From contig DAOVZK010000002.1 of NCBI GenBank assembly GCA_030635145.1, positions 21,119-85,118 of the forward strand: DNA of 64,000 bases, given 5' to 3'. The notes under the pieces were generated by a model. The model was not told the origin of the DNA, made no database searches, and saw only the letters and a program-made list of their open reading frames with translations. How positions within the stretch are numbered: the first letter of the stretch is position 1; every line of letters begins with the position of its first letter. This document shows positions 9,563-53,262 of the stretch, piece after piece. The translations under genes were made by a program, and so were the position numbers. Source of the stretch: Planctomycetota bacterium. Lineage in GTDB: Bacteria; Planctomycetota; Phycisphaerae; SM23-33.

Positions 9563-9665
9563 ATACGGTAAATGACCATCCCACATTTTCAATAGACTCT
9601 TGATTCTCGCTCGCAGGGGCGTATGATGCCTATCTCGATTTGTTCCCATAATTCAAGGAGCGTAA

Positions 9666-12686: not shown

Positions 12687-12787
12687 CAAAAATGGGTTGT
12701 ATTCGTAATGATTGGAAAAGGACGTAATTTTGTGCGAACTATTTGCAATGTGGAGTGTCCAAGGGAGGAGTTAAACGAATAATTCCA

Positions 12788-18737: not shown

Positions 18738-19853
18738 GTGACATATCCCATAGACAACAGTAAATTACCCGCCGATCAGTCCACAACCACCGACGCCTCG
18801 CAGCAACCCAGCGGTGGCGACATCGCGGCCGTCGAAAAACTCACAGACGCCTACAAGAAAATTCGCGACGAAATGTCTCGGGTTATTGTCGGGCAAGACG
18901 CAGTCGTCGAACAGCTGCTGACTTGCGTGTTTGCTCGCGGGCATGCGATTTTGGAAGGTGTACCGGGATTGGCGAAAACGCTTATGGTTTCGTCGCTGGC
19001 GAAGTGCCTCGATCTGGGATTCTCGCGAATTCAGTTTACTCCCGACCTCATGCCGTCGGACATCACCGGCACCGAAGTCATCCAGGAAGACAAGTCCACC
19101 GGGCATCGCGAATTCAAATTCTTAAAAGGCCCGATCTTCCAGAACATCATCCTCGCCGACGAAATTAACCGCACGCCCCCGAAAACGCAGGCTGCACTTT
19201 TAGAGGCCATGCAGGAACGCCAAGTTTCCGTCGGTGGTAAGCAGCTGCCGATGAGCGATCCGTTCTTCGTACTGGCGACGCAAAACCCGATCGAGCAGGA
19301 AGGAACCTATCCCTTACCCGAGGCACAGCAGGACAGGTTCATGTACAAGATTTTCGTTTCGTATCCAAACTGGGACGACGAATTCGAGGTCATCCGCCAA
19401 ACAACCACGACCGAGCAAACGCAGCTGAAACCCGTGCTCGACGGTGAGACGATTCTCCAGGCCCAGCACACGATCCGCCGCGTACCCGTAGCCGACAGCG
19501 TTATCCAGTACGCCATGCGACTTGTGCGTGCGACGCGAATAAATGAATCCGACGGGCAAGGCGTACCAGAAATCGTGCGCGAGTACATCAGCTGGGGTGC
19601 AGGCCCGCGGGCGTGCCAATATCTCATACTCGGTGGAAAAGTCCGCGCGGTTCTTAACGGCCGCTTCCATGTCAGCACCGACGACATCGCCGCCGTCGCC
19701 AAACCCGTGCTGCGGCACCGCATCGTCACAAACTTCAATGCCGACGCAGAAGGCTTCGACCCCGACAAAATCATCGCCGCCCTGCTGGAATCCATCCCCG
19801 CACACGAAAGCAACATCGCGACAAATCCGCGAACGTCGAAGGCAGTGGAGTAG
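18738..19853 (+). CDS. MoxR-family AAA+ ATPase
   Basis: Walker A GVPGLAKT, Walker B ILADEINR, ~320-aa core, GTG start with an AGGAGA RBS. Confidence 0.9.
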
Positions 19854-19922
19854 TTACGGGTGAAAAGTGATACAAGATAGCACAATGGTTAGTTATAGAT
19901 TGGCTTAAAGGCTGGTGTCATT

Positions 19923-21275: not shown

Positions 21276-21301
21276 CAACAAACTATTAGTCAAACATAAA
21301 T

Positions 21302-22252
21302 ATGCCAAAAACAAAAAACGAACTGCTGGAATTTCTCGACCCGAAAGTCTTAAGCAAGATTTCGCGTTTGGATCTTCGCGCGCGATCCGTGGTAGAAGGA
21401 TTCGTCAGCGGAATGCATCGCAGCCCGTTTAATGGGTTCTCCGTCGAATTTGCCGCCCACCGCGAGTACGTTCCCGGTGATGACATCAAACACATCGACT
21501 GGAAAGTTCAGGCCCGCACCGACCGCTTCTACATAAAGCAGTACGAGGAAGAAACCAACCTCAAGGCAACGTTTTTGCTGGACGCATCGGAATCGATGCA
21601 CTACCCGGCGAAAAAACCGGGGCTTCCCAAGGCTGGGCGACTGACGAAATACGAATACGCCGCCACTACAGCGGCAAGCTTGGCGTTTATGCTGCAACAA
21701 CAGCAGGACAGCGTGGGGCTTGGGATTTTCGACGAGGATTTGAAAACATACCTACCGGCCGCTGGGCATATGTCGCAAATAAAAGCGATGGTACACGCTA
21801 TGAGCATCACCGAAGCCAAGGGTAAAACCTCGCTCGAAGATATCTGCCACACCGTCGCCGAAAAAATCTCACGCCGCGGATTAGTCTGCATCATCAGCGA
21901 CTTATTCGTCGACATCGACGGACTAATGCGAGCTTTGGAACATTTCCGCCACTACGAACACGAAGTGCTGGTCATGCACATCATGGACAGTGACGAACTG
22001 GAGTTCGACTTTCAGGGCACGACGCAATTTCGCGGGCTTGAGGCGATGGGCAACCTCACGGTTCAGCCTCGCGCGCTACGCGACGCATACCTGCGGGAAG
22101 TCGAAGAATTTCACCACCAACTCCGCAGCAAATGCGCAGCTGGACGGATCGACTACAAACTAATTTCGACCGGCGACCACCTCGACGCAGCCTTGTGTTC
22201 ATTCTTAGCAGCCAGGGCGGCGGCGGTTCGCAAAGCCTCAGCGAAACGATAA
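21302..22252 (+). CDS. DUF58 protein (MoxR-associated vWA-like)
   Basis: GMHRSPFNGFSVEFAAHREYVPGDDIKHIDWKVQARTDRFYIKQY is the DUF58 signature segment. Confidence 0.85.
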   Translation: MPKTKNELLEFLDPKVLSKISRLDLRARSVVEGFVSGMHRSPFNGFSVEFAAHREYVPGDDIKHIDWKVQARTDRFYIKQYEEETNLKATFLLDASESMHYPAKKPGLPKAGRLTKYEYAATTAASLAFMLQQQQDSVGLGIFDEDLKTYLPAAGHMSQIKAMVHAMSITEAKGKTSLEDICHTVAEKISRRGLVCIISDLFVDIDGLMRALEHFRHYEHEVLVMHIMDSDELEFDFQGTTQFRGLEAMGNLTVQPRALRDAYLREVEEFHHQLRSKCAAGRIDYKLISTGDHLDAALCSFLAARAAAVRKASAKR

Positions 22253-22341
22253 TTTTTAAATAACGTCCTTACAAACTGCATACGACTGGAATAATTTTCA
22301 CTAACGACTTTACAATGACAAGTAACTGGAATAAATAACGA

Positions 22342-24648: not shown

Positions 24649-24666
24649 AAATGGTAAATAGCACAC

Positions 24667-27342: not shown

Positions 27343-29639
27343 GTGATCAATTGTTACAATCCTGTGTACTGGGAAAATTGCGGTCGCTGCGAATGCTACT
27401 GCGCGGGCGACTGCTGCTCGAGGGAGTTGGATGGTTTGTCCTGGGGATTATCGCCTTGATACTCGTGACGCTGGCGTTCGACTACACGCTGCATCTCAAC
27501 CGCGAACAACGAATCATGATCACCGCCTTGTGCTGCGTGGGAATTCTTGTGATTGTTTGGAAAACGCTCCTCGCCCCGCAAACCGTTGCCATGAAAAACT
27601 CCGACCTTGCCCTGCTCGTCGAGCGGCATTACGGACAGCTGGACGACAGACTTATCAGTACACTGGAGCTAACCGACCGAGAAATGATCATCGCCTGCGG
27701 GGCAAGCGAAGAAATGGTCGCCCAGATGTCGCGCGAGGCGAACGACATTGCATCGCAGCTGAAATTTTCAAAGATCGTGGAAATGCGGCGAATGGGAAAA
27801 GTGTGGATTCTCACGGGAATTGCACTGCTGATGATGGGAAGTTTCACGGTTCTTAAAAGCGATGTCATGTCGCTATGGTTTCAGCGAAACGTACTCATGT
27901 CCAATATCGATTGGCCGCAAGACACGTACCTGTGCGTGTACTACGTTAACTACGACGGGCAGCTGGCACCGCTGATGGAAGTGGCACCCGACGGAACCAT
28001 CACCAATACCGTCGACAAATTCGACGTGCTGCGCGGTGAGGACATGAAAATCGTCACCATTACCACGGACGGGAGTGAAACGCCCGATCAGGTAAAGCTG
28101 CACGCGTGGTACCCTTCGGTGGGTGATACCGAAGGATTGGCGGGCAAACTTTCGGGTCAACAGGCTACGAAATATCTTGCGAAGCTTCCGGGCCAGAGTT
28201 CTCGCGGAGTATACGTGCAGAAAATTTCTGGCGTGTCGGAGGAGTTTCGATTTTACGTTACCGGCGGCGACGACAAACGCGATAAACGTAATCCTCACAA
28301 CGTCTGCCTCGTCGATCCACCAGCCGTCAAGCAAATACTGTTTCCCGTGGAATTCCCCGCGTACATGCGAAAAACACAATCCGAACCCGTCGACGGATCG
28401 CGCGGTGTGCTTTCCATTCCGCTGGGGTCAACCGTATACATTCAGGCAATGGTGAACAAAGACCTGATGTCCGGCGAGCTGATCGTAAATGAAAAATCGG
28501 CGAGCAAGCTCGAAATACTCAACGATTCCAAAAACCGCCCGCGCGAGTTGCGAGGGTCGTTCACCGTAGACGGAAAAAACGTACCACGCAGCGACACGCT
28601 GAGATTCACCCTCAAAGACACCAGCGGATATTCCAATCGCCGCGGAGAGCAAATTATTCTGCAGGTTATCCCCGACGCTGCACCGAGCATAAAGCTACAA
28701 TTTCGCGGAGTGCGAAATGTCATTTGCCCGACGGCAATGATTCCGCTGATCGTATCCGGGAAGGATGACAACGGCATTGAGCGGATTGATGTTTCTTACA
28801 TCTGCACACCCCCGGAAAAAGAATCCGCCGACGCACCGGCCTCGCCAACCCGTCGGGCCCTTGAGCCGATCTTAAGCGGGCCTGAAATCAAAAAGCAGTT
28901 GGTTGCAAATCGCACGCTGGACATTCAGCCGCTGAAGCTCATCCCCGGTTCGAAGGTGCGAGTAAAAGCCCGCGGGCTTGATCTGCTACCGAAAAATCTG
29001 CAGGGCCCGAATGCGGCAGATTCCAACGAACTGACGTTTAGTGTGATTACGACCGAAGAGCTTCTCGCTCAGCTCGTGGGCAAGCAGAAAGAAGTTCAGC
29101 TGGAATTCTTCATGGCGATGGGGCAGCAGGCGCTTTCGCAAGGCCGATGCGATGCCGTCAGCAAACAGCTGGCCAGCGGTAAGATCGGCCCCACCGTTCC
29201 ACAGCGTCTCACCGACGCCATCGGCCGACAACTTGCCGTCACGAACGAATCAATCAAAGCCGCCGACACCCTCCACGCCGTCGCCGACGAAATGGAATTC
29301 AACCGCATAGGAAAACCGCAAGACCATCAGGCGATACGCACGAATATCGTGCTACCGTTGCGGCATCTGGTGACCCAAATGCGTGAAGTGTTGCAGCAAC
29401 TCCAAGCTGCCAGCAAAATAAATGACCCCGCGCAGCTGCGGGAAAAACTCGAGAAAATTGTCGCAGAGCAAACTGTGATTTATGAGGAAATGGAAAAAAT
29501 TCTCAAGCATATGCGAAAGCTGGAGAATCGGTTGGAGATAGCACGGCGGTTAGAACAAATTTTGATAATGTCACGCGAACTTGAGGAGATTCTCAGGCAA
29601 CGGGCAGACGAAAGTACATCCGAAACGTTTGAAGACTAA
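27339..29639 (+). CDS. double-TM-anchored large extracytoplasmic protein (third consecutive double-TM protein of the cluster)
   Basis: GTG start overlapping the previous stop (GTGA). N-terminal hairpin FVLGIIALILVTLAFDY...IMITALCCVGILVIVW and a helical C-terminal region. Confidence 0.65.
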   Translation: MSDQLLQSCVLGKLRSLRMLLRGRLLLEGVGWFVLGIIALILVTLAFDYTLHLNREQRIMITALCCVGILVIVWKTLLAPQTVAMKNSDLALLVERHYGQLDDRLISTLELTDREMIIACGASEEMVAQMSREANDIASQLKFSKIVEMRRMGKVWILTGIALLMMGSFTVLKSDVMSLWFQRNVLMSNIDWPQDTYLCVYYVNYDGQLAPLMEVAPDGTITNTVDKFDVLRGEDMKIVTITTDGSETPDQVKLHAWYPSVGDTEGLAGKLSGQQATKYLAKLPGQSSRGVYVQKISGVSEEFRFYVTGGDDKRDKRNPHNVCLVDPPAVKQILFPVEFPAYMRKTQSEPVDGSRGVLSIPLGSTVYIQAMVNKDLMSGELIVNEKSASKLEILNDSKNRPRELRGSFTVDGKNVPRSDTLRFTLKDTSGYSNRRGEQIILQVIPDAAPSIKLQFRGVRNVICPTAMIPLIVSGKDDNGIERIDVSYICTPPEKESADAPASPTRRALEPILSGPEIKKQLVANRTLDIQPLKLIPGSKVRVKARGLDLLPKNLQGPNAADSNELTFSVITTEELLAQLVGKQKEVQLEFFMAMGQQALSQGRCDAVSKQLASGKIGPTVPQRLTDAIGRQLAVTNESIKAADTLHAVADEMEFNRIGKPQDHQAIRTNIVLPLRHLVTQMREVLQQLQAASKINDPAQLREKLEKIVAEQTVIYEEMEKILKHMRKLENRLEIARRLEQILIMSRELEEILRQRADESTSETFED

Positions 29640-29667
29640 ACTAAAAAGTTTGCAACAGGAAATTAAA

Positions 29668-31869
29668 ATGATCGACAAAACGAAATCAAAATCACGATTG
29701 CTTATTCTAGTTGTGTGCGCGTTGGGAATTCTTGCGGGCCCTGCGGTGCTTCATGCGCAGGACTCCACCCCCAAGGACAAAGAAAGCAAAGATCTGGTGC
29801 ACTCGGCGGCGTTTATAAAGAAGAGGCTTAACGAGCTTTTAGTGGCGATGTCGGATGTGGCGACGCTGCTGGAAAAAACTGAGCCTGAGGTGGCGAAAAT
29901 TTTGCGTCGGGCGGTGGATTATGCTCAGTCCGAGGACGTTTCCGATAAGCTGGAAGACGTGATTAATGCGTTGCGGGGCGGGTTAGACGAGGCTGCCCAA
30001 GTCAGCCACAGTGAAGTTATCGCCGACCTTACTACCATGCTTCGAATCATCGAGGGCGGAGTAAATGAAGATTCCGATATGGACAAACGTATCGCCGAGT
30101 TGCGGGCGGTGCGTAATCGGCTCGACAAGACAATCAAAAAGCAAACCGTCGAGGAAAAGAAAACACGCCCCGCCGCCAACGAAAAAGATATCGACGACCA
30201 AACGAAAAAGCTCATCGAATATCTGGAAAATATCGTCAAACAGCAGCAGGAACTGATGGGCAAAACCGGCAAACTCAAACCCGCCACCCCGGATGTTAAA
30301 AATCTTAGCGAACTTCGTAATACCATTCGCGAGCTTATCAAGCAGCAGGAAAAAATCAGCAAGGCCTCCGACACCTCTGCCCTGGCGAAGATTCCGGTTC
30401 TCGGTGAGGCTCAGGCGAAACTGTCGAAAAAAACCCAAGCCGCCATCAAGGCCATCAAAAAATCGAACATCGATCCCAAAACTCGCGACAAAACCGCAGC
30501 ATTCACCAAAGACGCCGCAGACGAAATGACCCACGCCGCCAAGTCGCTAAGTGAGTCGAACCCCAACTCTGCATCGCCGTCGCAAAAGCGAGCGATGGAG
30601 CGACTAAAGGCAGCCGAGAAAAAACTCTCCGAGGCGATAGCGAAAAAAACCGCGGGGCAGCCCAGCAGCGAACTTTCGCAGAAACAGGGCAAGCTCGCCG
30701 AGCAGACGGATGGGCTTAAGGACGAGTTAAAAAATATCGCCGACAAGGCGGGCATGGAAACGAAGAAAACCGGCGATCTCGGCAAGGCTGCCAAGTGTAT
30801 GAAAAAGGCTGAAGATAAACTCTCGTCGCAAGAATCATCTCCCGCGGTAAAGCAGCAGGAGATGGCGTTAAAAGAGTTGAAACGTGCCGTCGACGACGCC
30901 AAAAAACTTCGCCGGCTGGCTGCCGAAAAAGCGAAAACGAAAGTACCCGCCGAGCCGCAAAACGAAATCGCCGAAGAAACCAAAAAACTCGCCGAAGATA
31001 TGAAAAACACCGAATCCAAAAAGCCAATGGCTGGGCAGCCTTCGGTTTCCAAGGCAAGCAAATCAGCGGGGGCGGCGGGGAAGAAACTTTCCAGCGGTAA
31101 GTGCGGCGGGGCAAACAGCGACCAGAAAAAAACCATCGAAGAGCTGAAAAAAGCTATGTCACAACTCGACGAAGAAATCGAAGAGCTTGAACGTCTTTCA
31201 AAAATGGAAAAACTCGCCAGCATTGAAGAACAGCTGGAGAAAGTTCTCACTGACCAGAAGGAATGTACGCAAAAAACGCAGCGGGTGTATACGCTTCGTG
31301 CGAAAACAAAACCGCACTATAACCGCCAAGCCACCCAGACGATTTTGGAAGTTTCCAAACAGGAGAATTCGCTCAGCAAAGACGTTGGTGCGATCCGCCG
31401 CCTGCTTGTTAAGGAAGGAACAACGGTGGTTTTCCCCGAAGTTCTCGACGACATCGTCAAGGATATGCAGAGCGTTTCCAAACGTCTGGAGGCGACAGAT
31501 CCGGGTAAGTTGACGCAGGCGATGCAAAAGGATATCGAAGAAACGATTCAGGAGCTGCTCGACGCCGTCCGTAAGGAGTTGTCGAAAGGACCCGGGCGGA
31601 AGAAAGGCGGAGGAGCATGCAAGGGTGGCGGCAAATCTCCCCTCGTTCCCCCGCTGGCGGAGTTGCGTATGCTGCGTTTGAAAATGAAGCGGGTTAATCG
31701 GGGAACGAAACGGCTTGAGAAAATGAAAACGAGCAAGATGATAACCGAACCCGAGGCTAAAATCCAACACGCCAAGCTCGCCGAACGTCACAAAAAAGTT
31801 CTAGAGCTGGCAGGAAAAATCAAAAGCAAACTTGACAGCTCCCAGCCAAAACTGAAAAATCAGGAGTAA
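29668..31869 (+). CDS. secreted 733-aa K/E/A-rich coiled-coil protein
   Basis: ATG with an AGGAAA RBS. Signal peptide LLILVVCALGILAGPAVLHAQ. The rest is almost entirely charged heptad-like sequence. The ORF-track start at 29581 overlaps the upstream gene and is rejected. Confidence 0.7.
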   Translation: MIDKTKSKSRLLILVVCALGILAGPAVLHAQDSTPKDKESKDLVHSAAFIKKRLNELLVAMSDVATLLEKTEPEVAKILRRAVDYAQSEDVSDKLEDVINALRGGLDEAAQVSHSEVIADLTTMLRIIEGGVNEDSDMDKRIAELRAVRNRLDKTIKKQTVEEKKTRPAANEKDIDDQTKKLIEYLENIVKQQQELMGKTGKLKPATPDVKNLSELRNTIRELIKQQEKISKASDTSALAKIPVLGEAQAKLSKKTQAAIKAIKKSNIDPKTRDKTAAFTKDAADEMTHAAKSLSESNPNSASPSQKRAMERLKAAEKKLSEAIAKKTAGQPSSELSQKQGKLAEQTDGLKDELKNIADKAGMETKKTGDLGKAAKCMKKAEDKLSSQESSPAVKQQEMALKELKRAVDDAKKLRRLAAEKAKTKVPAEPQNEIAEETKKLAEDMKNTESKKPMAGQPSVSKASKSAGAAGKKLSSGKCGGANSDQKKTIEELKKAMSQLDEEIEELERLSKMEKLASIEEQLEKVLTDQKECTQKTQRVYTLRAKTKPHYNRQATQTILEVSKQENSLSKDVGAIRRLLVKEGTTVVFPEVLDDIVKDMQSVSKRLEATDPGKLTQAMQKDIEETIQELLDAVRKELSKGPGRKKGGGACKGGGKSPLVPPLAELRMLRLKMKRVNRGTKRLEKMKTSKMITEPEAKIQHAKLAERHKKVLELAGKIKSKLDSSQPKLKNQE

Positions 31870-31872
31870 GAC

Positions 31873-33096
31873 ATGACCGCAAAACGACTCATAATCGCAA
31901 TAGTTCTGGTTTTCTCGCTGGGAATTCTCACGAGTTCGCCGGTTCGAGCGCAATTCGTCGACGAAAAATACTCCTCCGTCACCTCACAGGATCAGATCGA
32001 CGACATTCTCGCGGATCTGTCCAACGAGGAGCTTGAAGCGATGGTTCAGGCTGCCATTCGGCGGCGTCTGGAAGTAGAGCGGCTGCAGACGGCGGCGGAA
32101 ATTTCGCAGAATATTCTCTACGAACCCGAGCGCATCGAAAAGGCCCTTACCCTGCTGGAGAACGTGGAGAAATCCTCGCAAAGCGACAACATCTCGCGAA
32201 TTTGCAAGGCCTACGCCATTACCGACGCGCGGTTTGCCGAGCCATATGAACTCTACACCAAAGGCAACTACCAAGCCGCCGCCGCCCTCCTGAAACCCAT
32301 GCTCAACCCCGAAGAGGAAACGTATCTCAGCGCGGCGATGCATTATGTGTACGGGGTGTCGCTGATTAAGACGGATAAAATTTGGAAAGGCACCGAAGCA
32401 TTGACGGAAATTCTCGTCAATCTTCCTGACCGCATAAGTTTTGCGTCGGAGGCAGCGTTTCAGGCGGCAGCGGCGTACGAAAAAATGGGCAGAAAAATAT
32501 ACGCCATGCAAATGTACAGCTACGCCATGCAAAATTATTCGCTTACGATGGACAAAAAACTGCTCGACGAAACGACGACAAAGCTTGCGAAATATGAGAC
32601 GATTTACAAGAACCCCATGAAGACGATCACCGAAATGCTTGGCGAGATCAAAGGACGGTTAGACAAAGATGACACGGGCAAAAAAACGCAGCTCAAGCAG
32701 CAAGAAACCCTCGATGTGCTGGATGACTGGATAAAGACGCTCGAAGAAAAAAACCGCCAGAAGGATAATCAAAACCAGAAAAACCAGCAGCGAGAAAAAC
32801 GCAAGCAGGAAAGAAAGAAGACTGAGGAGGAGAAAAAATCCGCAGGAAAAAAACAGGGCAATCCGTCCGGGAGCAAGCGGTCTAAAACCGGCGCGAGGGC
32901 ATCAGTGTTGGTACCAGGCCCGGTGAGTACGCCGAACAATATGGCGAAAAAATTTGGGGCAGGATCGTCGGACAAATGGTCAGAAATGCCCGCCAAGCAG
33001 CGTGAGCTTATCGAAAATCTAATGCGCCAGCGCACCGCCCAGCGGCGAAGCGGATTGGTTAGCGACTACCATAAAAAAATTGCTGAGGGTGAATAA
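31873..33096 (+). CDS. secreted TPR-like protein with a K/E/Q-rich C-terminal tail (BatC/BatE-like position)
   Basis: Signal peptide LIIAIVLVFSLGILTSSPVRAQ, TPR-like helices, and the tail KDNQNQKNQQREKRKQERKKTEEEKK. Confidence 0.65.
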   Translation: MTAKRLIIAIVLVFSLGILTSSPVRAQFVDEKYSSVTSQDQIDDILADLSNEELEAMVQAAIRRRLEVERLQTAAEISQNILYEPERIEKALTLLENVEKSSQSDNISRICKAYAITDARFAEPYELYTKGNYQAAAALLKPMLNPEEETYLSAAMHYVYGVSLIKTDKIWKGTEALTEILVNLPDRISFASEAAFQAAAAYEKMGRKIYAMQMYSYAMQNYSLTMDKKLLDETTTKLAKYETIYKNPMKTITEMLGEIKGRLDKDDTGKKTQLKQQETLDVLDDWIKTLEEKNRQKDNQNQKNQQREKRKQERKKTEEEKKSAGKKQGNPSGSKRSKTGARASVLVPGPVSTPNNMAKKFGAGSSDKWSEMPAKQRELIENLMRQRTAQRRSGLVSDYHKKIAEGE

Positions 33097-34340
33097 TGCC
33101 GATGAAAGCTCCGAAAATCCTGAATATCCTGAAACTTCGGGGGAATTATGCCGCGGCGGCGAGCTTCGTTGTAATGCTGTTCGCGATGATTACGACGAGC
33201 GCTGCGGAGACGGTGGAAACGCTCGACATGCAGCAAATCGAAGGGGCAATTGGCACCTTCGACGGAAAAACGCTGACGATCAAAATCGGTGATGGGGTAA
33301 AGAAAATTTCGGTCAAAGACCTCGCCGAACTCGTATTGCAAAAACCCAAAAACGCCAAATCCGCCCCCGGCACTATTGTGCTGCAAACAGTATGCGGGGA
33401 TATCATCCCCGTGAAAAATCTCACGCTGGACAAAGATCAATTCACGCTGCAAAATCCGCTACTGGGAAAAGTCGCCCTGAAAATGGACAAGGTCAAGGTG
33501 ATTTTCACCCCCGCCGAAAACGAAACTCCGCAGGACGTAATTGACAGCTGCACCGCCAACAAATATAAGCAAGGTTTGCGGGATATGCTGGTGATCGTTC
33601 GCAAAAATGGCGTCTTGCAGTCGGCACGCGGGGTGCTAAAGAGTGTCGGGCGGGAAAAAATCGGCTTCCAGCTCAAAGGGAAAGATCGCAGAATTTCCCG
33701 GGCATCGGTGCGTGCCATTTGGCTTTCGGAAACGCCCCAAAAACCCGCAGCCCCGCGCGGTGTGCTTATCGCAACCGACGGAACGCGGATTAAATTTACA
33801 GCCCTGAAGTTTGACGGAAAAACCGTCGAGGCCGAATCGTGGGTATTCGGAAAGTTGAAGTTCAACCGCCAGATGCTTAGTGGTGTGCGGTTCGTTTCGG
33901 ATCGCGTCGTGACACTCAGCGAACTGAAACCGACCGATGTTAAGGAACATGGATTCTTCGACAGCAAGACCTATCCCTACCGCATAGACCTTTCGACGAC
34001 GGGTAAGCCCATAACCCTGGGGGGTAAGGTTTACATTACTGGTTTGGGGCTTCACAGCTATTCGCAAATAACCTATGCGATCGACAAAAAGTATCGCACG
34101 TTTTTTGCGATTGTCGGAATCGACGACAATGCAAATTCCGACGGCGAGGCTAGCATCACGATTTTGGGTGACGGCAAAAAGCTGCTGCCCGAGACACAGC
34201 TGACAGCTGCGGGCAAGCCCGTCGCGGTTCGCTTAAATGTCACGGGCGTAAAGGAGCTGACGATCATCGTCGACAGCGGATCCGACAAACTTCCCGTCGG
34301 TGACCATGTGGATATCGTCGGTGCGCGACTGATAAAATGA
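33096..34340 (+). CDS. membrane-anchored protein with a C-terminal NPCBM-like carbohydrate-binding-module domain
   Basis: The C-terminus GLGLHSYSQITYAIDKKYRTFFAIVGIDDNANSDGEASITILGDGKKLL...LNVTGVKELTIIVDSGSDKLPVGDHVDIVGARL follows the NPCBM/NEW2 pattern (GlgvHa...F.a.vGvDD...v.F.v..DGk...v.vtGak.L.L.v.d.gd...DhadW). 1-nt overlap with the upstream gene (TAATG). Confidence 0.65.
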   Translation: MPMKAPKILNILKLRGNYAAAASFVVMLFAMITTSAAETVETLDMQQIEGAIGTFDGKTLTIKIGDGVKKISVKDLAELVLQKPKNAKSAPGTIVLQTVCGDIIPVKNLTLDKDQFTLQNPLLGKVALKMDKVKVIFTPAENETPQDVIDSCTANKYKQGLRDMLVIVRKNGVLQSARGVLKSVGREKIGFQLKGKDRRISRASVRAIWLSETPQKPAAPRGVLIATDGTRIKFTALKFDGKTVEAESWVFGKLKFNRQMLSGVRFVSDRVVTLSELKPTDVKEHGFFDSKTYPYRIDLSTTGKPITLGGKVYITGLGLHSYSQITYAIDKKYRTFFAIVGIDDNANSDGEASITILGDGKKLLPETQLTAAGKPVAVRLNVTGVKELTIIVDSGSDKLPVGDHVDIVGARLIK

Positions 34341-38765: not shown

Positions 38766-39422
38766 CTATTTGAGCTTTATCGTTATCCAGTCGCGTTGAG
38801 TTTCGACGAGCTGCCCTTCGGGGTTTCGCTTGACTCTGAAAAACACCAGGTAAAGCCTATTTGCCGGGCACTTCTGAATCTTCACGTTTTGCCCGTCGAG
38901 GCAGAAGCCCTTAACGCTGCGGGTGCAAAGATACCCACCACCCTTAGTGAGGGAAACTTGCGTAACACCGTCGGTGTCGTAGCGATGCGAGTCTTTACCC
39001 AGGTACGCCCAGTTGTGATACCGCTGGTTGTTGTCGCTGTAAGCATAGAGCAGCCCCTCGGGGTTCTGGAAATTCTCGCTGATCTGCGAGGAAGCATCGA
39101 TAATTTTGTCCATCCGCACCCCTGCTTTTGCCATCTGCAAAGCGTTGGGGTTGAAAGATGCCTGCACCAGTATCGTATCGAGCTTGTCGAAGTAGAAAAT
39201 CATCTCAAACGGTTTCCTGGTGAGGGTTGCTTCGTGATCGGAAACCGAAATTTTCCTTTCGCCCTGCTGAATGCCGACTGCAAAGCTGGTAGATTTTTCG
39301 GGAATGAATTTGTCAAGCTTGGGTTTGCTCCACATGGGAAGGCATCCTGCACACTGCAAAAAGAGGCCCAAAACCCCGCACACGGTGATGCATCGAACCA
39401 GACTGTTTTTCACGATAGACAT
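38766..39422 (-). CDS. hypothetical lipoprotein (218 aa)
   Basis: Start MSIVKNSLVRCITVCGVLGLFLQCAGC (signal plus lipobox) with GGAG 8 nt upstream. The ORF-track extension to 39917 has no signal or RBS logic and is rejected. Confidence 0.6.
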   Translation of the reverse strand: MSIVKNSLVRCITVCGVLGLFLQCAGCLPMWSKPKLDKFIPEKSTSFAVGIQQGERKISVSDHEATLTRKPFEMIFYFDKLDTILVQASFNPNALQMAKAGVRMDKIIDASSQISENFQNPEGLLYAYSDNNQRYHNWAYLGKDSHRYDTDGVTQVSLTKGGGYLCTRSVKGFCLDGQNVKIQKCPANRLYLVFFRVKRNPEGQLVETQRDWITIKLK

Positions 39423-42639: not shown

Positions 42640-44148
42640 TTAGTCGGCCTTCGTATCAGGTTTTGCCGCCGGTAATTCTTTCGCAGCAACCACCTTCAAT
42701 TTCAGTCGATTCGGCGAGAACCCCGTAATTTTGACTTTGATTGTTTTCAGTTCGGCGAGATTATCCGCAAAATTCTGCGTTGAGAATTCGTAGTCCACAT
42801 CCACGTTGGCCAGTGACTTTGTAATCTCTCGCAGCCGCAGGGCCTTAACCCCGCGAAGTTTTTCAACCTCTGTCTCGAAGATTTTCCAGTCGGCGTAGGT
42901 CATGTTTTCGATTTGCAGATTTATGTCGCGGGTAACATTGACCTGCTTGCGCCATGCCTCCACGACAGCTCCCAGCAACTTAGGCCCTGCCTTTTTCGCG
43001 AGCTTGTCCAACGCCTTACTCTCCCCGCCGGTTTTCTTGAGCGAGTTAACCGTTATCGGGCCAAAAACTTTCGACACTATCAGCTGTGCCGAATCGGTGC
43101 GGATCACACGCACCACCAGCTTCGCCGAGTACTGATGCATCTTGACGTCGCCGACAGTGATATCACCCGCGTACTCCGCCCCAGCTGTGCCGATGATGAT
43201 TACGTCGGCGTTGAACTTTTTCCCGATCGCCGCGGCATCGACCAGATCGTCCTTCCCCGCCGCCAGCATAATGTCACGCTGATTAAGCGCCGTCGCCGTG
43301 CTCTGATCTATCAGCTTGATTCCCTTGTCGATGAAAAATTCTTCCAAACGCCCCTGCGCCACGCCCTTGTCTTTCAGCTCGGTGGCGACGCGTTTCCAGA
43401 CCTTAAAATTGTCGCGGGACCGGGCCGAATCTGTTCGCGATGCTTGTGCGACGCGAATTTCTTCAGCGGCGGTATTTTCTATCCAGCGAGAACGATCTCG
43501 ACGAGTCATGGACGCCCAGTTGCGAGGCCGTTGTCGCCCTGACCACCAGCTGAAATTTCCACGGACTGTATCAACATCGGTACGCCGCTCAGCCGCGGCC
43601 GCCCGGGCAGATTCCCGGCGCATTTGCGAAATCAGCGTCGCCGTCCTGGTACGCTCAGATGCCGACTTGGCGTCAAGCTCCAACTCGTTAACCATTTTCA
43701 CCGTCGACTCACCAATAACCATGATAACCCGCGGATTGTTCTCCTGATGGTACGTGTGGGCGATGGCGGCCCAGTTTTGCTCGAATTTCTGCGTAGACAC
43801 CAACGCTCGCACGCGGGCGTGGTACATTCCGTCTTCGATCCAGCATTTGGGGGTGTCGTGCTTTTTTACATATCCGACGGCGTCGGCGAAGACTTTATCG
43901 TATATCCCCTGATAGTTCTTGGTTTTAGAGCGAGACTTGATAAACACACCGCACCCTTGCTCGACAGCCTTTCGCAGCGCTTTTGCGACGGCTTCATCGC
44001 GGGCCTTTGGGGTCGTCCCCGCGGCCGACTCGGTAACCGTCACCCAAGTGTCGCGAGATTTTTCTCTTATTTTCTGCGCGGCGGCTGGTAGAGCAAGCGA
44101 AAGTAAAACACCAAACAAAACCGTGATTATTGCAGGATATCGAAGCAT
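42640..44148 (-). CDS. secreted protein: N-terminal LPP20/FlgT-N-like domain, Arg-rich linker, C-terminal domain paralogous to the product of 47179-48309
   Basis: Signal peptide MLRYPAIITVLFGVLLSLALPAAAQ (start 44148, GGAGA RBS). VTVTESAAG...ARDEAVAKALRKAVEQGCGVF aligns to VTVTVVGMGESEKDAIKDGKRKAVEQVAGTLV of the 47179 protein. FNADVIIIGTAGAEYAGDITVGDVKMHQYSAKLVVRVIRTDSAQLI aligns to FGAQIFITGVAQATTSGARNINGRRLHIYEADANVKVFRSDTAQLL. Confidence 0.7.
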   Translation of the reverse strand: MLRYPAIITVLFGVLLSLALPAAAQKIREKSRDTWVTVTESAAGTTPKARDEAVAKALRKAVEQGCGVFIKSRSKTKNYQGIYDKVFADAVGYVKKHDTPKCWIEDGMYHARVRALVSTQKFEQNWAAIAHTYHQENNPRVIMVIGESTVKMVNELELDAKSASERTRTATLISQMRRESARAAAAERRTDVDTVRGNFSWWSGRQRPRNWASMTRRDRSRWIENTAAEEIRVAQASRTDSARSRDNFKVWKRVATELKDKGVAQGRLEEFFIDKGIKLIDQSTATALNQRDIMLAAGKDDLVDAAAIGKKFNADVIIIGTAGAEYAGDITVGDVKMHQYSAKLVVRVIRTDSAQLIVSKVFGPITVNSLKKTGGESKALDKLAKKAGPKLLGAVVEAWRKQVNVTRDINLQIENMTYADWKIFETEVEKLRGVKALRLREITKSLANVDVDYEFSTQNFADNLAELKTIKVKITGFSPNRLKLKVVAAKELPAAKPDTKAD

Positions 44149-44467
44149 TTTGTGAATCTCCAATGAGTTAGAGGCTGTTTTAGGACAGCAGTAATTATTC
44201 TTCGGTGTGCAGCAGTGTCATGTGAACAGGAAAATGTTGGTCAGTCAAATTATTTTTTCACTAAGTGCTTGATTTTTGCCCTACCTTTGCCGAATCATAC
44301 AGGGTAAAGTACAGGGTACTTCTAATTATTTGACAATCTGCTAAACCGCTTCCCGCGATAGCCAATAAACATTGGACCCTAAGGCGGGTTGCGTAGTGAA
44401 GAACTAATTTTAGAGTTTATCTACAGTTCACATAGACCATTGGCGACGGGGTAGAGGAGATTTAAAT

Positions 44468-45445
44468 ATGGTGCGGACGTTTCGTAAGTGTACAGTTTTG
44501 CTGCTTTGTGGTGTTGGTGCGTTTTTTGCGGCCGGGTGTGAGACCAAACCCATCGCGATTAGCTATTATCGCCCGGCACAGTATAAAATTCCGTCAAGCG
44601 TAAAGAAGCTGGCGATTGTGCGGTTCGGCGGTAAAGGCAGAACCGAACGAAAATACGGCGAGATCGCCTCGGATAAGCTCGCCTCGACATTAAACGCTTA
44701 CAATCAGAGGTACAAGCGCTTCGAACTCTACGACCGCAAACGCGTTTCAGCCATCATGGACGAACGTGACTTTCAGCTGTCGATCACCGACACAGATGAG
44801 GCCGTCAAGCTAGGTAAGATCGCTAAAGTCGATGCCATGATCTACGGAACAGTCTATGTTGTTGCCAAAGACGAAAGGCTCACCAAACAATATTACGATT
44901 GGAAAAGCGAAACAACCAAAACCCGCTCCTACATTCGCAGATATGCCTCGGCGGCGGTTACCTTCACTATGGATGATATCCATACGACCAAGACGCTCTG
45001 TACGGTAACGATCACAAACAATTATGACTCCGACAAGGGGCAAAGCAGCTGGATGGGTACTGATCCAAAACTGCTTCCCACTGATCAGGTCGTCGACCGC
45101 CTTATCCAGATGTGTGTCGACCAGTTCATCCCAAAAATCAGCCCGCACCAGGTATTTGTGAATTTGCGGTTTGAAAAAGGCAAGAGCAAGGCAGTCAAGG
45201 AAGGTAACAAATTCGCACTGGAACGCGAGTTTGGCGATGCTCTTGAGTATTACCGCATGGGTCTGGTAGAAAAACCCGAAGACCACGGAGCGATGTTCAA
45301 CATCGGAGCATGTTACGAGGGGATGGGAAACTTGAAAAAAGCCCGCGAATACTACAACAAGGCCATCAAGATGAAGCCGGAAAAAAAATACATCAAAGCC
45401 AGGCGTCGCGTAAGGCTTGAGGGGCAACGAATAGGGAATCGGTAA
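44468..45445 (+). CDS. CsgG/LpoB-like (TolB-N-like fold) lipoprotein with a C-terminal TPR
   Basis: Lipobox FFAAGC. KKLAIVRFGGKGRTERKYGEIASDKLASTLNAYNQRYKRFELYDRKRVSAIMDERDFQLS...AVKLGKIAKVDAMIYGTV follows the CsgG/LpoB pattern (lAVlpF.n.s.....g..l.d.l...L...g.f.vvER..l..vl.E..lq.sg......a..lGk..GAd.vv.G.v). The C-terminus ALEYYRMGLVEKPEDHGAMFNIGACYEGMGNLKKAREYYNKAIKM is TPR. Confidence 0.7.
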   Translation: MVRTFRKCTVLLLCGVGAFFAAGCETKPIAISYYRPAQYKIPSSVKKLAIVRFGGKGRTERKYGEIASDKLASTLNAYNQRYKRFELYDRKRVSAIMDERDFQLSITDTDEAVKLGKIAKVDAMIYGTVYVVAKDERLTKQYYDWKSETTKTRSYIRRYASAAVTFTMDDIHTTKTLCTVTITNNYDSDKGQSSWMGTDPKLLPTDQVVDRLIQMCVDQFIPKISPHQVFVNLRFEKGKSKAVKEGNKFALEREFGDALEYYRMGLVEKPEDHGAMFNIGACYEGMGNLKKAREYYNKAIKMKPEKKYIKARRRVRLEGQRIGNR

Positions 45446-45522
45446 AAAACATCAGTTAGTTACCACGCAGAAACAAAATCATGCCCGGTAGCGGGCAAGG
45501 CAATCAATTTAGGAGAAACGAA

Positions 45523-46878
45523 ATGAGTAAATTACAAAAATGTCTATGGGTTGCACTGGGCGTTGCTGTTTTAATGTGCAGCTTGACCCCGGTTTTGGCC
45601 GAAGACGCCGTAACCGCACAGCGGGATGCCCAGCGTAAGCTGCTGGCCCAGCGGGCTGCCCGTGCCGACGCCATGAGAAAATTGGCCGAACGCATCAAAG
45701 GCCTCCGAATCACGTCCAGCACCACCGTGCAGGATTTCGTCACAGAAGACGACACCATCGACACTGCCCTTCGCGCCTGGCTGCTGGGAATGAAGGAAGA
45801 AGGAAAGTACAAGCACAACAACGACGGCACATGCGAAATTACGATGTCCGTTACGCTGCTGACGGTTGAGGATGAACTCACGCGGCTGCACAAGGCCTAC
45901 TACAAGGGCAAAAAGTACAAGATCAAAGACATTCAGAGTATGCGGCGGATCAATAAGCTTAGCAAGATCACCGAAACCGGCATGGGTGCCATGCCCGAAG
46001 AACTCGACGAAAACCCGCTGTCACCGACCGACGCATCAGGCCGAAACCCCGCCAAAGTTCCCGACTACTGGACCAAGCATTGTACCGGTCAGGGTAGACT
46101 GATGGCAGTGAAAGCCGCTCGCGTCGATGCCATGCGAAGACTCGCCGAACGCATCAAGGGCACGCGAATTACATCCGACACGACCGTGCAGGATTTCGTC
46201 ACCGAATCTGACGACATCAACATGGACATGCGTGCATTCCTCAAGGGCGCAAAGGAAGTCGGCGTACGATACCATCGTAAAGAGCTTATCGTCGAAGTGG
46301 AAATGGAAGTTACGCTGAAAACCGTTGTCGCCACCGTTCGCCGTCTGGTAAACGAACGCTACAAAGGCAAGAAGCAAAAACTCAAATATATCGACGAGTA
46401 CATCGAAAAAGTTCGCTACGACAAGATCGTCGAAACCGGCATGGGTGTGCCTCCGAAAAGGTTCCTCAAGGGTTACACTGAAGTGCAGATCGCCGTTTTG
46501 ACAACCGCCGCCGCTGCCCCGCCATGGGCCACCGACACGCTGCGTGCCAAAGGCCAGGCTGCCGTCGATACCGAAAATCCGAATCAGGCCCAGGCGAAAC
46601 TGATGGCCTACCGCGCTGCCGAACTCGACGCCAGACGAAAACTCGCCGAAGAACTAAACGGGCTGATGATCCGTTCCGACACGTCGGTCAAGGATTTCGT
46701 CGCACAGGACGACACCATCGACACCCGCATGACGGCCTTCCAGCTGGGAGCGAAAGTCGTTAAGAATTCGCAGAAACTAAACGCCGACGGAACTGCAGAA
46801 GTGACAGTCGAAATCGAACTCAAGCCTCTGTGGAACATCATTCTGTACGGCCAGAAACGTGGGCTGAGACTTAAGTAA
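45523..46878 (+). CDS. secreted protein with three tandem LPP20/FlgP-like domains
   Basis: Three ~110-aa repeats each begin [AQ]xxK[LM][ML]AxRAAxxDAxR[KR]LAExIxGxxI[TR]SxT[TS]VxDFV[TA]xxDxIxT. Examples: QRKLLAQRAARADAMRKLAERIKGLRITSSTTVQDFVTEDDTIDT, GRLMAVKAARVDAMRRLAERIKGTRITSDTTVQDFVTESDDINM, AQAKLMAYRAAELDARRKLAEELNGLMIRSDTSVKDFVAQDDTIDT. Start 45523 with an AGGAGA RBS. Confidence 0.75.
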   Translation: MSKLQKCLWVALGVAVLMCSLTPVLAEDAVTAQRDAQRKLLAQRAARADAMRKLAERIKGLRITSSTTVQDFVTEDDTIDTALRAWLLGMKEEGKYKHNNDGTCEITMSVTLLTVEDELTRLHKAYYKGKKYKIKDIQSMRRINKLSKITETGMGAMPEELDENPLSPTDASGRNPAKVPDYWTKHCTGQGRLMAVKAARVDAMRRLAERIKGTRITSDTTVQDFVTESDDINMDMRAFLKGAKEVGVRYHRKELIVEVEMEVTLKTVVATVRRLVNERYKGKKQKLKYIDEYIEKVRYDKIVETGMGVPPKRFLKGYTEVQIAVLTTAAAAPPWATDTLRAKGQAAVDTENPNQAQAKLMAYRAAELDARRKLAEELNGLMIRSDTSVKDFVAQDDTIDTRMTAFQLGAKVVKNSQKLNADGTAEVTVEIELKPLWNIILYGQKRGLRLK

Positions 46879-46931
46879 ACCAGGGAAACATCACGCTATT
46901 GAATCGAACAAAATCTAGATAGGAGAATACT

Positions 46932-47078
46932 ATGAAACGTTTTATATTTGGAATGCTTGCTATGGTTGCACTTGCTGGTTTTTGCCTCTCGGCCGGCTGC
47001 GAAAAAAATGAAATGGAAGTTCAACGCACCGAAGAACGCACAGAGGTCATCTCGCAGGAACCAATAGTTACACCATAG
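46932..47078 (+). CDS. 48-aa lipoprotein (missed by the ≥60-aa ORF track)
   Basis: AGGAGA RBS 5 nt upstream. MKRFIFGMLAMVALAGFCLSAGCEKNEMEVQRTEERTEVISQEPIVTP has a signal peptide and LSAGC lipobox. A hairpin-terminator-like sequence (AAAAACCCCC...GGGGGTTTTT) follows. Confidence 0.45.
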   Translation: MKRFIFGMLAMVALAGFCLSAGCEKNEMEVQRTEERTEVISQEPIVTP

Positions 47079-47178
47079 AACTAAATGGTTTTTAAAAACC
47101 CCCAGGCTTCGTGACAACGGGGTCTAGGGGGTTTTTAATTTTCGATATTTCAGAATCGAATCAGAAGGGATGTGAATC

Positions 47179-48309
47179 ATGCGTAGCTTTTTCCTTTTAA
47201 TGCTTGCGGTGGTGCTTGTGCTGGGCTGTTTTGCGACCCCGGTAGTTGCCGCCAACAAAAATCTCGTAACCGTTACCGTCGTCGGGATGGGCGAGTCTGA
47301 GAAAGACGCCATTAAGGATGGCAAGCGCAAGGCCGTCGAGCAAGTCGCCGGGACGCTGGTATATTCCGCCTCCAAAACGAAAGATTTCACACTCATTCGC
47401 GACACCGTGCTTACCCGTTCGGCCGGTTTCGTGCAGTCGCATGAGGTGCTGTCTAAAAGAATAACGACGGACGGAATTTACGAAGTCAAAATGCGCGTCA
47501 CGGTTTCCAAGAAAGGAATCGTGGATCGATGGGGCGTGGTGACGAATCTGCTGAAGGACATGGGGCGGCCGAAAATCATGGTCTTCATCCGCGAAAAAGT
47601 CGGAAACGATTGGCAGGAATCTTCTACGGTGCAGACGCGTGTGGAAAATAGGCTGTTGAAAAACGGATTTCTGCTGGTTGACCGCGATCAGTTAAAAGCC
47701 ATCGATAAAAAGGATATCCAGGCCGCCATCGCGGAGGACAAGCCCGAAAAAATCCAGGCCATCGCGAAGAAATTCGGTGCCCAGATTTTCATTACCGGCG
47801 TGGCACAGGCGACGACTTCCGGCGCACGCAACATTAACGGCCGACGCCTCCATATCTACGAGGCCGACGCGAATGTCAAAGTTTTCCGTTCGGATACGGC
47901 CCAGTTGCTGGGTTCCATTCCCGGCCGCGCCACCCGAGGTGTACAAGGCGTCGCACGATCCGCCGCCAAACAAGCACTCGACGGGCAGGGCCGGATGCTG
48001 GCACCGATGATTACGAACGACATCCTGCGATTCTGGATGGACGTCATGGACGGCCGCGGCGAAGTGCAGCTGAAAATCGACGGGATCAGTTTCGGCCAAT
48101 ACGCCAAGCTGAAAAAGGCTCTGGGGAAGGTCAAGGGCGTAAACGACATCAACGCGAAGTACAGCAACAAGGTTGCCGATATTTCTATCGAGTCGGATAT
48201 GCAAGCTGAGAAGCTCGCCGAAAAACTCGCTGAGGATTTCGAGGACATACTCGAAATTACGGACGTTTCGCAGAACGTCATCAAGGCCGACTACAAAAAG
48301 GCTGAATAG
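47179..48309 (+). CDS. secreted LPP20/FlgT-N-like protein, paralogue of the 42640-44148 product
   Basis: Signal peptide FFLLMLAVVLVLGCFATPVVAANK. Domain VTVTVVGMGESEKDAIKDGKRKAVEQVAGTLVYSASKTKDFTLIRDTVLTRSAGFVQSHEV...DGIYEVKMRVTV. The C-terminal domain is homologous to the 42640 protein. Confidence 0.75.
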   Translation: MRSFFLLMLAVVLVLGCFATPVVAANKNLVTVTVVGMGESEKDAIKDGKRKAVEQVAGTLVYSASKTKDFTLIRDTVLTRSAGFVQSHEVLSKRITTDGIYEVKMRVTVSKKGIVDRWGVVTNLLKDMGRPKIMVFIREKVGNDWQESSTVQTRVENRLLKNGFLLVDRDQLKAIDKKDIQAAIAEDKPEKIQAIAKKFGAQIFITGVAQATTSGARNINGRRLHIYEADANVKVFRSDTAQLLGSIPGRATRGVQGVARSAAKQALDGQGRMLAPMITNDILRFWMDVMDGRGEVQLKIDGISFGQYAKLKKALGKVKGVNDINAKYSNKVADISIESDMQAEKLAEKLAEDFEDILEITDVSQNVIKADYKKAE

Positions 48310-48343
48310 ATAGAGCAGTTAACGATTAACCCCGCCAAACGAA

Positions 48344-48370
48344 GCCCGGTCTGTCGGCCGGGCTTTTTTA
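48344..48370 (+). terminator. rho-independent terminator
   Basis: GCCCGGtctgtcggCCGGGC hairpin followed by TTTTTT. Confidence 0.6.
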
Positions 48371-48403
48371 CGCGCTAATTTTATCCGCAAATAAAATACC
48401 CCA

Positions 48404-48476
48404 AAACCACAAACAGCCGATGGTGAGAATCGAACTCGCAACCCCAGCTTTACGAAAGCTGTGCTCTACCGTTGAG
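48404..48476 (-). tRNA. tRNA-Thr (anticodon CGU)
   Basis: Acceptor GCCGATG/CATCGGC (7/7), D-arm GCTC-AACGGTA-GAGC, anticodon arm CAGCT-TTCGTAA-AGCTG (U33, CGU, A37), T-arm GCGAG-TTCGATT-CTCAC (one C·A mismatch), discriminator U. Confidence 0.8.
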
Positions 48477-48587
48477 CTACATCGGCCTATCCGCCGCATC
48501 GCGACGGGTGCGATATTGTAGAAAATAATCCCAAAAATGACAAGAGGTTTACCTCAGAATCGTGAATATTGCTCACTTGAAATTTGG

Positions 48588-52800: not shown

Positions 52801-52844
52801 GGTTATCCCGCGAAACGCGGTGTAACCACGCCACCCGTCGTAAC

Positions 52845-53262
52845 ATTGTAGACTTACATTACGGCATTGCAGGCTTACATCGTGACATTGTAAGGTTACA
52901 TTACGGCATTGCAGGCTTACATCGTGGCATTGTAAGGTTACATTACGGCATTGCAGGCTTACATCGTGGCATTGCACGCTTACATTGAGGCATTGTAGAC
53001 TTACATTACGGCATTGTAAGGTTACATTACGACATTGTAAGTTTACATTGAGGCATTGCACGCTTACATTACGGCATTGCACGCTTACATTGAGGCATTG
53101 TAAGCTTACTCCGAGGCAAAGTAAGTTAACTCTACGGTAAAGTCAGCTTACTCTGTGGCAAAGTCAGTCAACTCTACGGCAAAGTCAGTCAACTCTACGG
53201 CAAAGTCAGCTTACTCCGAGGCAAAGTAAGTTAACTCTATGACAAAGTAAACGATCAAAATA
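52845..53262. repeat. tandem array of ~20 direct 21-bp repeats in two subfamilies, each unit with a dyad core GTAAnnTTAC
   Basis: Units 1-13 fit CATTG-YARGN-TTACAT-YRNGG (for example cattgcaggcttacatcgtgg / cattgtaaggttacattacgg alternating). Units 14-19 fit CAAAG-TMAGY-TWACTC-YRNGG. There are no spacers, so this is not CRISPR. The minus-strand ORF 52633..53082 (LQCRNVT heptads) is a translation artefact of the repeat. Confidence 0.8.

Follow-up and report, generated by a model that had tools for sequence, protein, structure and literature searches.

A conserved Phycisphaerae operon encoding FlgP-like, FlgT-like and PelC/LipL41-like exported proteins is a candidate envelope ring or lattice

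Five exported proteins, designated A to E, are encoded by adjacent genes in a 64,000-nucleotide stretch of DNA from a Planctomycetota bacterium of the class Phycisphaerae (contig DAOVZK010000002.1, positions 21,119 to 85,118 of the forward strand; this entire stretch is referred to as the window). Genes B, C, D and E follow one another on the plus strand and A is transcribed divergently from B. B is a PelC/CsgG/LpoB-like lipoprotein with tetratricopeptide repeats (TPRs), C consists of three tandem FlgP/LPP20 domains, D is a mini-lipoprotein, and E and A are FlgT-like paralogues. Signal sequences are present on all five products, with those of A, C and E belonging to the signal peptidase I type. 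No membrane channel, ATPase or enzyme is recognized among A-E, and the set likewise contains no cytoplasmic, inner-membrane or barrel component. The reading favored here, held with slightly less than even confidence, is that B-C-D-E plus A would build a ring or lattice beneath the outer membrane, a self-contained scaffold that requires no energy input and in which D is a PflE-like lipid anchor for C. A scaffold is proposed because the family of each part has characterized members that oligomerize beneath the outer membrane.

The same five genes had been singled out in an earlier, sequence-only reading of this DNA as a candidate novel outer-membrane-associated assembly of LPP20/FlgP-like and CsgG/LpoB-like modules. 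Public gene calls on the identical contig agree with all five open reading frames (ORFs) and place the start of C at 45523 instead of 45481. The source organism and all organisms matched in the protein searches and the genome scan are uncultured, and the matches are all metagenome-assembled genomes. The carriers are free-living anaerobes of sediments and digesters, judged from the listed sources.

Searches against Pfam and the PDB were used to assign C (plus strand; the ORF opens at 45481, the probable start is 45523 and the gene ends at 46878), a secreted, non-lipidated protein of 451 residues. C scores 46.1 bits against Pfam LPP20 (PF02169; gathering cut-off 25.9) over three stretches. These correspond to three tandem SHS2-like domains that are 39-50% identical to one another, which upholds the LPP20 triplication proposed from the sequence. 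The repeats match the solved FlgP chains of Campylobacter and Vibrio by sequence with E-values of 4e-4 to 1.6e-2, and the FlgP chain 9HMF_C is the best PDB sequence match both for C and for the N-terminal domain of E. The norm for the LPP20/FlgP family is a single domain of ~100-170 residues that is usually lipidated, whereas C has three domains and no lipobox. Essentially all C orthologues lack the lipobox and carry a signal peptidase I type signal. Gene D (46932-47078, plus strand) encodes 48 residues with the lipobox LSAGC (SAGC) and a mature peptide of 26 residues, as the description of D as a 48-residue lipoprotein had it. In 46 of 52 loci, C and E are separated by an ORF for a small lipoprotein, of either the short, D-like form or a long form with ~115 mature residues. 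D, at fewer than 60 residues with an invariant lipobox cysteine and located beside an LPP20 protein without a lipobox, has the profile of a PflE-type protein.

E (47179-48309, plus strand; 376 residues) and A (42640-44148, minus strand; 502 residues; supported by both the ORF and the public gene call) are paralogues, with BLASTP E-values of 3e-20 and 2e-14. The signal peptidase I site of A falls between AAA and Q, and the E family has a consensus AxA-Q site of the same type; Cys17 of the window E is not kept in the family. The E structure model (predicted local distance difference test, pLDDT, of 79) has three domains: an SHS2/LPP20-like N-terminal domain (residues 29-110), a TolB-N/CsgG/LpoB-like middle domain (residues 130-290) and a ferredoxin (HMA)-like C-terminal domain (residues 294-372). 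A has the same three domains and an insert of ~100 residues (about residues 148-256) in the linker between the N-terminal and middle domains. The insert is Arg/Ala/Ser-rich and poorly conserved, and it is common to one subfamily of A orthologues and missing from the others. The middle and C-terminal domains of the two paralogues had gone unmentioned in the sequence-only reading. The HMA-like domain of E was considered as a metal-binding site and this was rejected since the CxxC motif is absent and there are no metal-binding cysteines.

Foldseek over the whole E chain returns Vibrio FlgT (8Z5N and 3W1E) as the best PDB matches with an E-value of 2.4e-10. The model predicts the FlgT-type order of an SHS2-like N-terminal domain followed by a TolB-N-like middle domain; E and A do not have the FlgT_C domain, and the ferredoxin-like domain occupies its place. 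The resemblance is weaker at the sequence level. Pfam FlgT_N (PF16548) does not match the window E or A, A has no Pfam match of its own, and the E-family profile does not find FlgT by sequence in the PDB. FlgT_N matches occur in 14 of 46 E orthologues, all of them below threshold (best E-value 7.9e-4). The N-terminal domain of E matches the LPP20 repeats of C at a BLASTP E-value of ~1e-5. The LPP20/FlgT_N-like domain attributed to A and E therefore stands on structure and on the matches to C, with weak support from hidden Markov models (HMMs), and the proposed paralogy of the two proteins is confirmed. Residues 59-82 of E, an insert, include several invariant positions and are the best-conserved part of the N-terminal domain, yet they are the least confident part of the model (pLDDT ~30). 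This combination is expected of a segment that is ordered only in an oligomer.

In NCBIfam, E is related to a Leptospira lipoprotein. E scores 47.1 bits (E-value 1.3e-12) against the LipL46 model (NF033164), with residues 41-330 aligned to positions 58-358 of 413, and the model is matched by 41 of the 46 E orthologues. The equivalog cut-off of this model is 400 bits and is not reached by E. Pfam LpoB gives matches, again below threshold, in 11 of the 46. E is 55-64% identical across the class, and its family extends far beyond it: the E profile finds 7413 representative proteins at E≤1e-3 and 2336 at E≤1e-10 among 1.84 billion, including a 143-member Marinimicrobia cluster. Fused forms of E were also found (P0216, P0302, P0330 and P0307). 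P0216 is a tandem E-E protein; other fusions join an E-like region to a transglutaminase-like core and TPRs in 914-949 residues, or follow the middle domain with seven copies of the ferredoxin-like C-terminal domain.

B (44468-45445, plus strand; 325 residues) is a lipoprotein with the lipobox AAGC, in which the Gly-Cys pair is invariant in 41 orthologues. A PelC/CsgG/LpoB-like domain is followed by two TPRs (about residues 241-302) that are matched strongly. The window B scores 14.8 bits against Pfam CsgG (PF03783; cut-off 20.8), most B orthologues carry a precomputed PF03783 match and one source labels a B orthologue CsgG. NCBIfam LpoB matches are found in 6 of 41 orthologues below threshold. 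TPR proteins aside, B is closest in fold to PelC, and the model (pLDDT 90) predicts a PelC fold in a lipoprotein. These data agree with the earlier assignment of B as a CsgG/LpoB-like lipoprotein with TPRs. The module assignments as a whole are borne out: HMM searches place LPP20 in C above the cut-off, and CsgG falls short of it in the window B and is recorded for most of the B orthologues.

Profile comparison connects B to a second Leptospira lipoprotein. The B orthologue profile aligns with LipL41 end to end (hhalign 95.3%, E-value 2.4e-8, 295 columns). Both are lipoproteins of ~325-355 residues with an alpha/beta domain containing an insert and two C-terminal TPRs in the same order, and both have the tail Y-[IL]-x-x-R-[RK]-R-V. 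The window B scores 20.9 bits against the NCBIfam LipL41 equivalog (NF033161; cut-off 400), in the TPR region only, and this model is matched at E≤1e-3 by 9 of the 41 B orthologues. With scores of 21 and 47 bits against cut-offs of 400, B and E are therefore distant relatives of LipL41 and LipL46 and not their orthologues.

tblastn was used to locate the genes in other genomes. C-(D)-E are adjacent in nearly all of 63 loci, and B is upstream in most Phycisphaerae loci. The recurrence of this synteny in ~60 independent loci places the cluster far beyond chance. At ~25 loci an A-type gene follows E immediately as part of one operon, an arrangement that the sequence-only reading did not mention. 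At ~12 loci a further CsgG-like lipoprotein, F, is encoded divergently upstream of B; F matches Pfam CsgG at 2e-10 and FlgO weakly. F is absent from the window, where its divergent position is taken by A, and the closest relative has the same arrangement as the window. The divergence of A and B, which had been described as a pair controlling the following genes, is real in the window but is a local arrangement and not a general one. The locus L005 illustrates the variant with F: an extra CsgG-like lipoprotein is encoded at 5782-6750 on the minus strand and a long lipoprotein (~137 residues) occupies the D position at 9460-9873 on the plus strand, as at ~12 similar loci. A pair of extracytoplasmic function (ECF) sigma and anti-sigma factors and an LTXXQ-like (CpxP/Spy-type) motif protein adjoin this operon. 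A second Phycisphaerae clade, with a high guanine-plus-cytosine (GC) content, has C, C' and E without B.

The flanks of the cluster vary and include rplM-rpsI, argCJ, glycosyltransferases, an ECF sigma factor and others. Neighbor clustering finds no other family in more than 7 of ~60 flanks; this clustering relied on crude ORF calls, noisy at loci of high GC content, and serves here only to establish the absence of a further conserved partner. Neither the Pfam scans of 30 further ORFs of the window nor the annotations flanking the cluster elsewhere revealed any flagellar, curli or Pel family, in keeping with the earlier statement that flagellar and curli genes are not present here. At a Marinimicrobia locus, an E-like gene (hhalign 99.8%) is followed by an LPP20-like gene, a thioredoxin-like gene and a gene for an LpoB/CsgG-like lipoprotein, and a TPR+SLH protein is encoded divergently.

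The proposed scaffold combines what is established for the relatives of each protein. PelC is a 12-mer ring. LipL41 is a 36-subunit, double-layered particle (PMC3861479). The innermost FlgP ring consists of 17 trimers within a series of concentric rings, and the ability to form rings goes with a beta-hairpin insert (PMC12222027). Residues 59-82 of E correspond to this hairpin segment. FlgT is a 26-mer ring, and FlgO and FlgP are 58-mer lipid-anchored rings (bioRxiv 10.64898/2025.12.02.691832). In Campylobacter jejuni, FlgP is functionally non-lipidated and depends for its placement at the outer membrane on PflE, a lipoprotein of 57 residues (bioRxiv 10.1101/2025.04.02.646747). By analogy, B may, like PelC and LipL41, assemble into rings by means of its PelC-like domain, and its two TPRs could hold partners as arms on the ring. 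C would be a covalent "trimer" of FlgP-type modules that polymerizes by beta-hairpin/beta-sheet augmentation into arcs or rings resembling the FlgP basal disk. D would hold C, which is not itself lipidated, at the membrane as PflE does for FlgP. E and A are envisaged to dock or co-polymerize through their own FlgP-like N-terminal domains, with the TolB-N/CsgG-like middle domains forming a second tier and the ferredoxin-like C-terminal domains, together with the long basic linker of A, facing the peptidoglycan. The outcome would be a ring or lattice beneath the outer membrane that gives the envelope stiffness or spacing, independently of a flagellum. A ring- or scaffold-forming structure, as the sequence-only reading had suggested, is still the most economical interpretation and is backed by the FlgT-like E, the FlgP matches of C, the PelC-like B and the LipL41 36-mer.

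A number of observations weigh against this interpretation. Ring formation is extrapolated only from the relatives. The N-terminal domain of B alone aligns modestly with LipL41 (hhalign 62.9%, E-value 7.1e-5), and the LipL41 query sequence was not taken from a database record, although it scored 532 bits in an NCBIfam check with a 400-bit cut-off. C was compared at loci where D is missing and never has a lipobox there either, so there is no contrast between loci with and without the putative anchor. B and D both have Glu at position +2, which does not fix sorting to the outer as opposed to the inner membrane. The trio B/C/E corresponds one to one with the flagellar H-ring proteins FlgO/FlgP/FlgT. 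Most anaerobic-digester Planctomycetota genomes carry genes for flagella, L and P rings included (PMC11929135). Finally, a sigma-28 (FliA)-like motif, TAAA-N15-GCCAATAA, is located at 44342-44368, 102 nucleotides upstream of B, and matches the consensus at 11 of 12 positions.

The last three of these points belong to the rival that the operon encodes the outer disk (the equivalent of the H-ring or basal disk) of a Phycisphaerae flagellar motor, built around L and P rings encoded elsewhere, with B or F acting as FlgO, C as FlgP/FlgQ, D as PflE and E and A as FlgT. We regard this as unlikely on balance, yet it has to be taken seriously: the set parallels FlgO/FlgP/FlgT, and flagellar genes are present in most related genomes. 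C matches FlgP by sequence, E finds FlgT as its top match in the PDB and F has a weak Pfam FlgO match. FlgQ is a two-FlgP repeat (PMC12222027) that parallels the three-repeat C, and the small lipoprotein PflE is needed for FlgP placement. Core flagellar genes are present in ~70% of anaerobic-digester Planctomycetota genomes, and FlgH and FlgI in ~77% of the tabulated group (PMC11929135). No flagellar gene occurs within 8-10 kb of any annotated locus or in the window; flagellar genes are scattered in many genomes, and the missing linkage is therefore weak counter-evidence. Also against a motor role are the replacement of FlgT_C, the MotY/T-ring scaffold (bioRxiv 10.64898/2025.12.02.691832), by an unrelated ferredoxin-like domain, and the failure of the E-family profile to find FlgT in the PDB by sequence. 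The E family is also very large (7413 representatives) and includes LipL46, and LipL41, the relative of B, is an abundant and dispensable outer-membrane lipoprotein.

The sequence between A and B bears directly on the sigma-28-like motif. This divergent intergenic region spans 319 nucleotides (44149-44467). An 88-nucleotide non-coding block within it (44228-44315) is nearly identical in the window and its two closest relatives (L068 and L069), where the B proteins are only 70-78% identical, and probably represents a promoter or leader common to them. The adjoining 121-nucleotide insert (44316-44436) is absent from these two relatives and unique to the window. The motif falls inside the insert and has no counterpart upstream of B in the two relatives or in 31 other loci. 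It was rejected as evidence for flagellar regulation. A riboswitch or structured leader in the intergenic region was rejected as well, given no Rfam match and a fold z-score of -1.1.

The remaining rivals assign the proteins to the cell wall, to export or to the cell surface. The lineage of the carriers divides without FtsZ, and A-E might control the activity or placement of cell-wall enzymes, or link the outer membrane to peptidoglycan, in the manner of LpoB/LpoA, TolB or Lpp, and not act chiefly as a ring scaffold. The LpoB matches of E (11 of 46, Pfam) and B (6 of 41, NCBIfam) point this way, as do the wall-binding TPR+SLH neighbor at the Marinimicrobia locus, one locus that lies ~4-9 kb from rodA, pbp2 and mreC, and the high conservation of E across the class. 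However, the LpoB-type matches are all sub-threshold, and the fold is common to many unrelated lipoproteins. The flanks conserve no penicillin-binding protein or hydrolase, Pfam and NCBIfam scans recognize no peptidoglycan-binding domain (OmpA, LysM, SPOR or SLH) in A-E, and the three FlgP-type repeats and the mini-lipoprotein are left unexplained, which makes a primary cell-wall role improbable. B has also to be considered as the outer-membrane gate for export of a polymer, either a CsgG-like pore or a PelBC-like funnel, with C, D, E and A as periplasmic accessories. The CsgG matches and the one CsgG-labeled orthologue would fit, PelC is the best non-TPR fold match and partners the TPRs of PelB, and sugar-nucleotide and glycosyltransferase genes are near the cluster in the window and at loci L005 and L058. 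The model of B argues otherwise. It has a single long polar beta-hairpin (residues 123-170) with a highly charged tip (KDERLTKQYYDWKSETTKTRSYIRR) in place of the two amphipathic transmembrane hairpins of CsgG, so B is not a CsgG-type membrane barrel. A CsgG-type pore, one of the functions that the sequence-only reading had associated with this fold, was rejected on this ground and for want of curli genes. The window contains no recognizable porin, csgA/B/E/F or pelA/B/D-G, and the sugar-metabolism neighbors are not kept across loci. Pel-like export was set aside as the leading explanation since the contexts examined hold no pel genes and the sugar-gene neighbors are not conserved, and an export gate of any kind is judged very improbable.

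The least probable role considered, and one given hardly any weight, is that of surface adhesins for particles or hosts. It follows from the usual view of LipL41 and LipL46, whose recombinant forms attach to host cells and to proteins of the matrix or plasma (PMC9779477). In contrast, C, E and A have no conserved lipid anchors, all of the folds are of the periplasmic ring or scaffold type, conservation this high is unusual for surface-exposed adhesins and the carriers are free-living anaerobes.

The 3' end of the cluster and several other features of the window were also recorded. A terminator-like hairpin and T-run (48348-48364, plus strand; a consensus match only) follow E and are likely to end the B-C-D-E transcription unit. 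A tRNA-Thr gene lies beyond the hairpin at 48414-48487 on the strand opposite to E. A further predicted lipoprotein (...FLQCAGC) of ~214 residues with no Pfam match is encoded at 38766-39410 on the minus strand, between a PAS histidine kinase gene and a UDP-glucose dehydrogenase-like gene. The long operon at 18738-34340 (plus strand) is a Bat/aerotolerance-like cluster that encodes a MoxR AAA ATPase, a DUF58 protein, BatA/VWA, several large proteins without Pfam matches, a DUF4175 protein and finally a protein with an NPCBM domain. A 1563-residue protein with PQQ/BamB-like beta-propeller repeats and a TPR is encoded at 12743-17434, and this gene is followed at 17439-18611 by one for a squalene-hopene-cyclase-like protein with a prenyltransferase fold. 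Beside mutS, ~19 tandem copies of a 21-nucleotide unit (consensus CATTGTAAGCTTACATTACGG, then GGCAAAGTCAGTTAACTCTAC) form a non-coding array at 52844-53250. The units in the first part of the array contain a short palindrome, and the array yields spurious repetitive ORFs in ORF lists.

The envelope of Planctomycetota and their FtsZ-less division are poorly understood. No published description of this operon was found. Each part belongs, at a distance, to a known fold family, and the system as a whole would work as the known ring scaffolds beneath the outer membrane do; what is new is the composition, the context and the link to LipL41 and LipL46; the novelty claimed in the sequence-only reading is tempered by the 7413-member E family and by the kinship with the two Leptospira proteins. 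Should the assembly prove independent of the flagellum, Planctomycetota would have a class-wide envelope structure not described so far, the torque-supporting disks of polar flagella would have their likely evolutionary origin in it, and LipL41 and LipL46, so far known as antigens and adhesins only, would acquire a testable structural function. A broader proposal, which we entertain as possible while leaning against it, is that the operon encodes an independent, non-flagellar organelle, a ring or lattice beneath the outer membrane that is akin to the flagellar H-ring and basal disk, and that LipL41/LipL46 and the Marinimicrobia set form the same kind of assembly. FlgO, FlgP and FlgT would then derive, by co-option, from an ancient envelope scaffold of general use, and two of the best-studied antigens of Leptospira would gain a physiological role. 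If the operon is flagellar instead, motors with an H-ring or basal disk would extend to the Planctomycetota-Verrucomicrobiota-Chlamydiota superphylum in a new composition consisting of a TPR-fused FlgO-like protein, a triple FlgP and a FlgT with a new C-terminal domain. In either case, five uncharacterized families are joined into one system.

Comparison with the flagellar systems places the operon closest to its FlgO/FlgP/FlgT and FlgP/FlgQ/PflE counterparts in modules and sets it apart in composition. The Vibrio proteins FlgO/FlgP/FlgT (PDB 8Z5N, 3W1E, 9YDS and 9YEF) share three kinds of module with the operon: a small lipoprotein of the CsgG/LpoB superfamily, an LPP20/SHS2 protein and a protein with an SHS2-like N-terminal domain followed by a TolB-N-like middle domain. 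In Vibrio, these form concentric lipid-anchored rings under the outer membrane (bioRxiv 10.64898/2025.12.02.691832). The operon differs in having no flagellar genes nearby and a ferredoxin-like domain instead of FlgT_C. C is a non-lipidated, three-domain protein whereas Vibrio FlgP is a lipoprotein of 140 residues, B is twice as large as FlgO and has TPRs, and the counterpart of FlgT is present as two paralogues with no sequence-level match to it. The C. jejuni FlgP/FlgQ/PflE module includes a tandem FlgP-like repeat in FlgQ, and its pairing of PflE with non-lipidated FlgP parallels that of D with C; D is likened to PflE by size, lipobox and pairing. The C. jejuni module has a strictly flagellar function and no FlgT-like or TPR-lipoprotein partner.

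The non-flagellar relatives share folds and lipidation with B. The physiological function of LipL41 and LipL46 is not established, and their genes are not known to lie in one operon in Leptospira. They are termed major outer-membrane proteins (PMC9779477), and Leptospira remains viable and virulent after knock-down or knock-out of LipL41 (PMC10326724). E, unlike LipL46, is not a conserved lipoprotein. PelC and CsgG are lipoproteins like B, and PelC also works with TPRs. The operon differs from both systems in that it has no transmembrane hairpins, partner porin, substrate or synthase genes, and the TPRs are fused to B itself.

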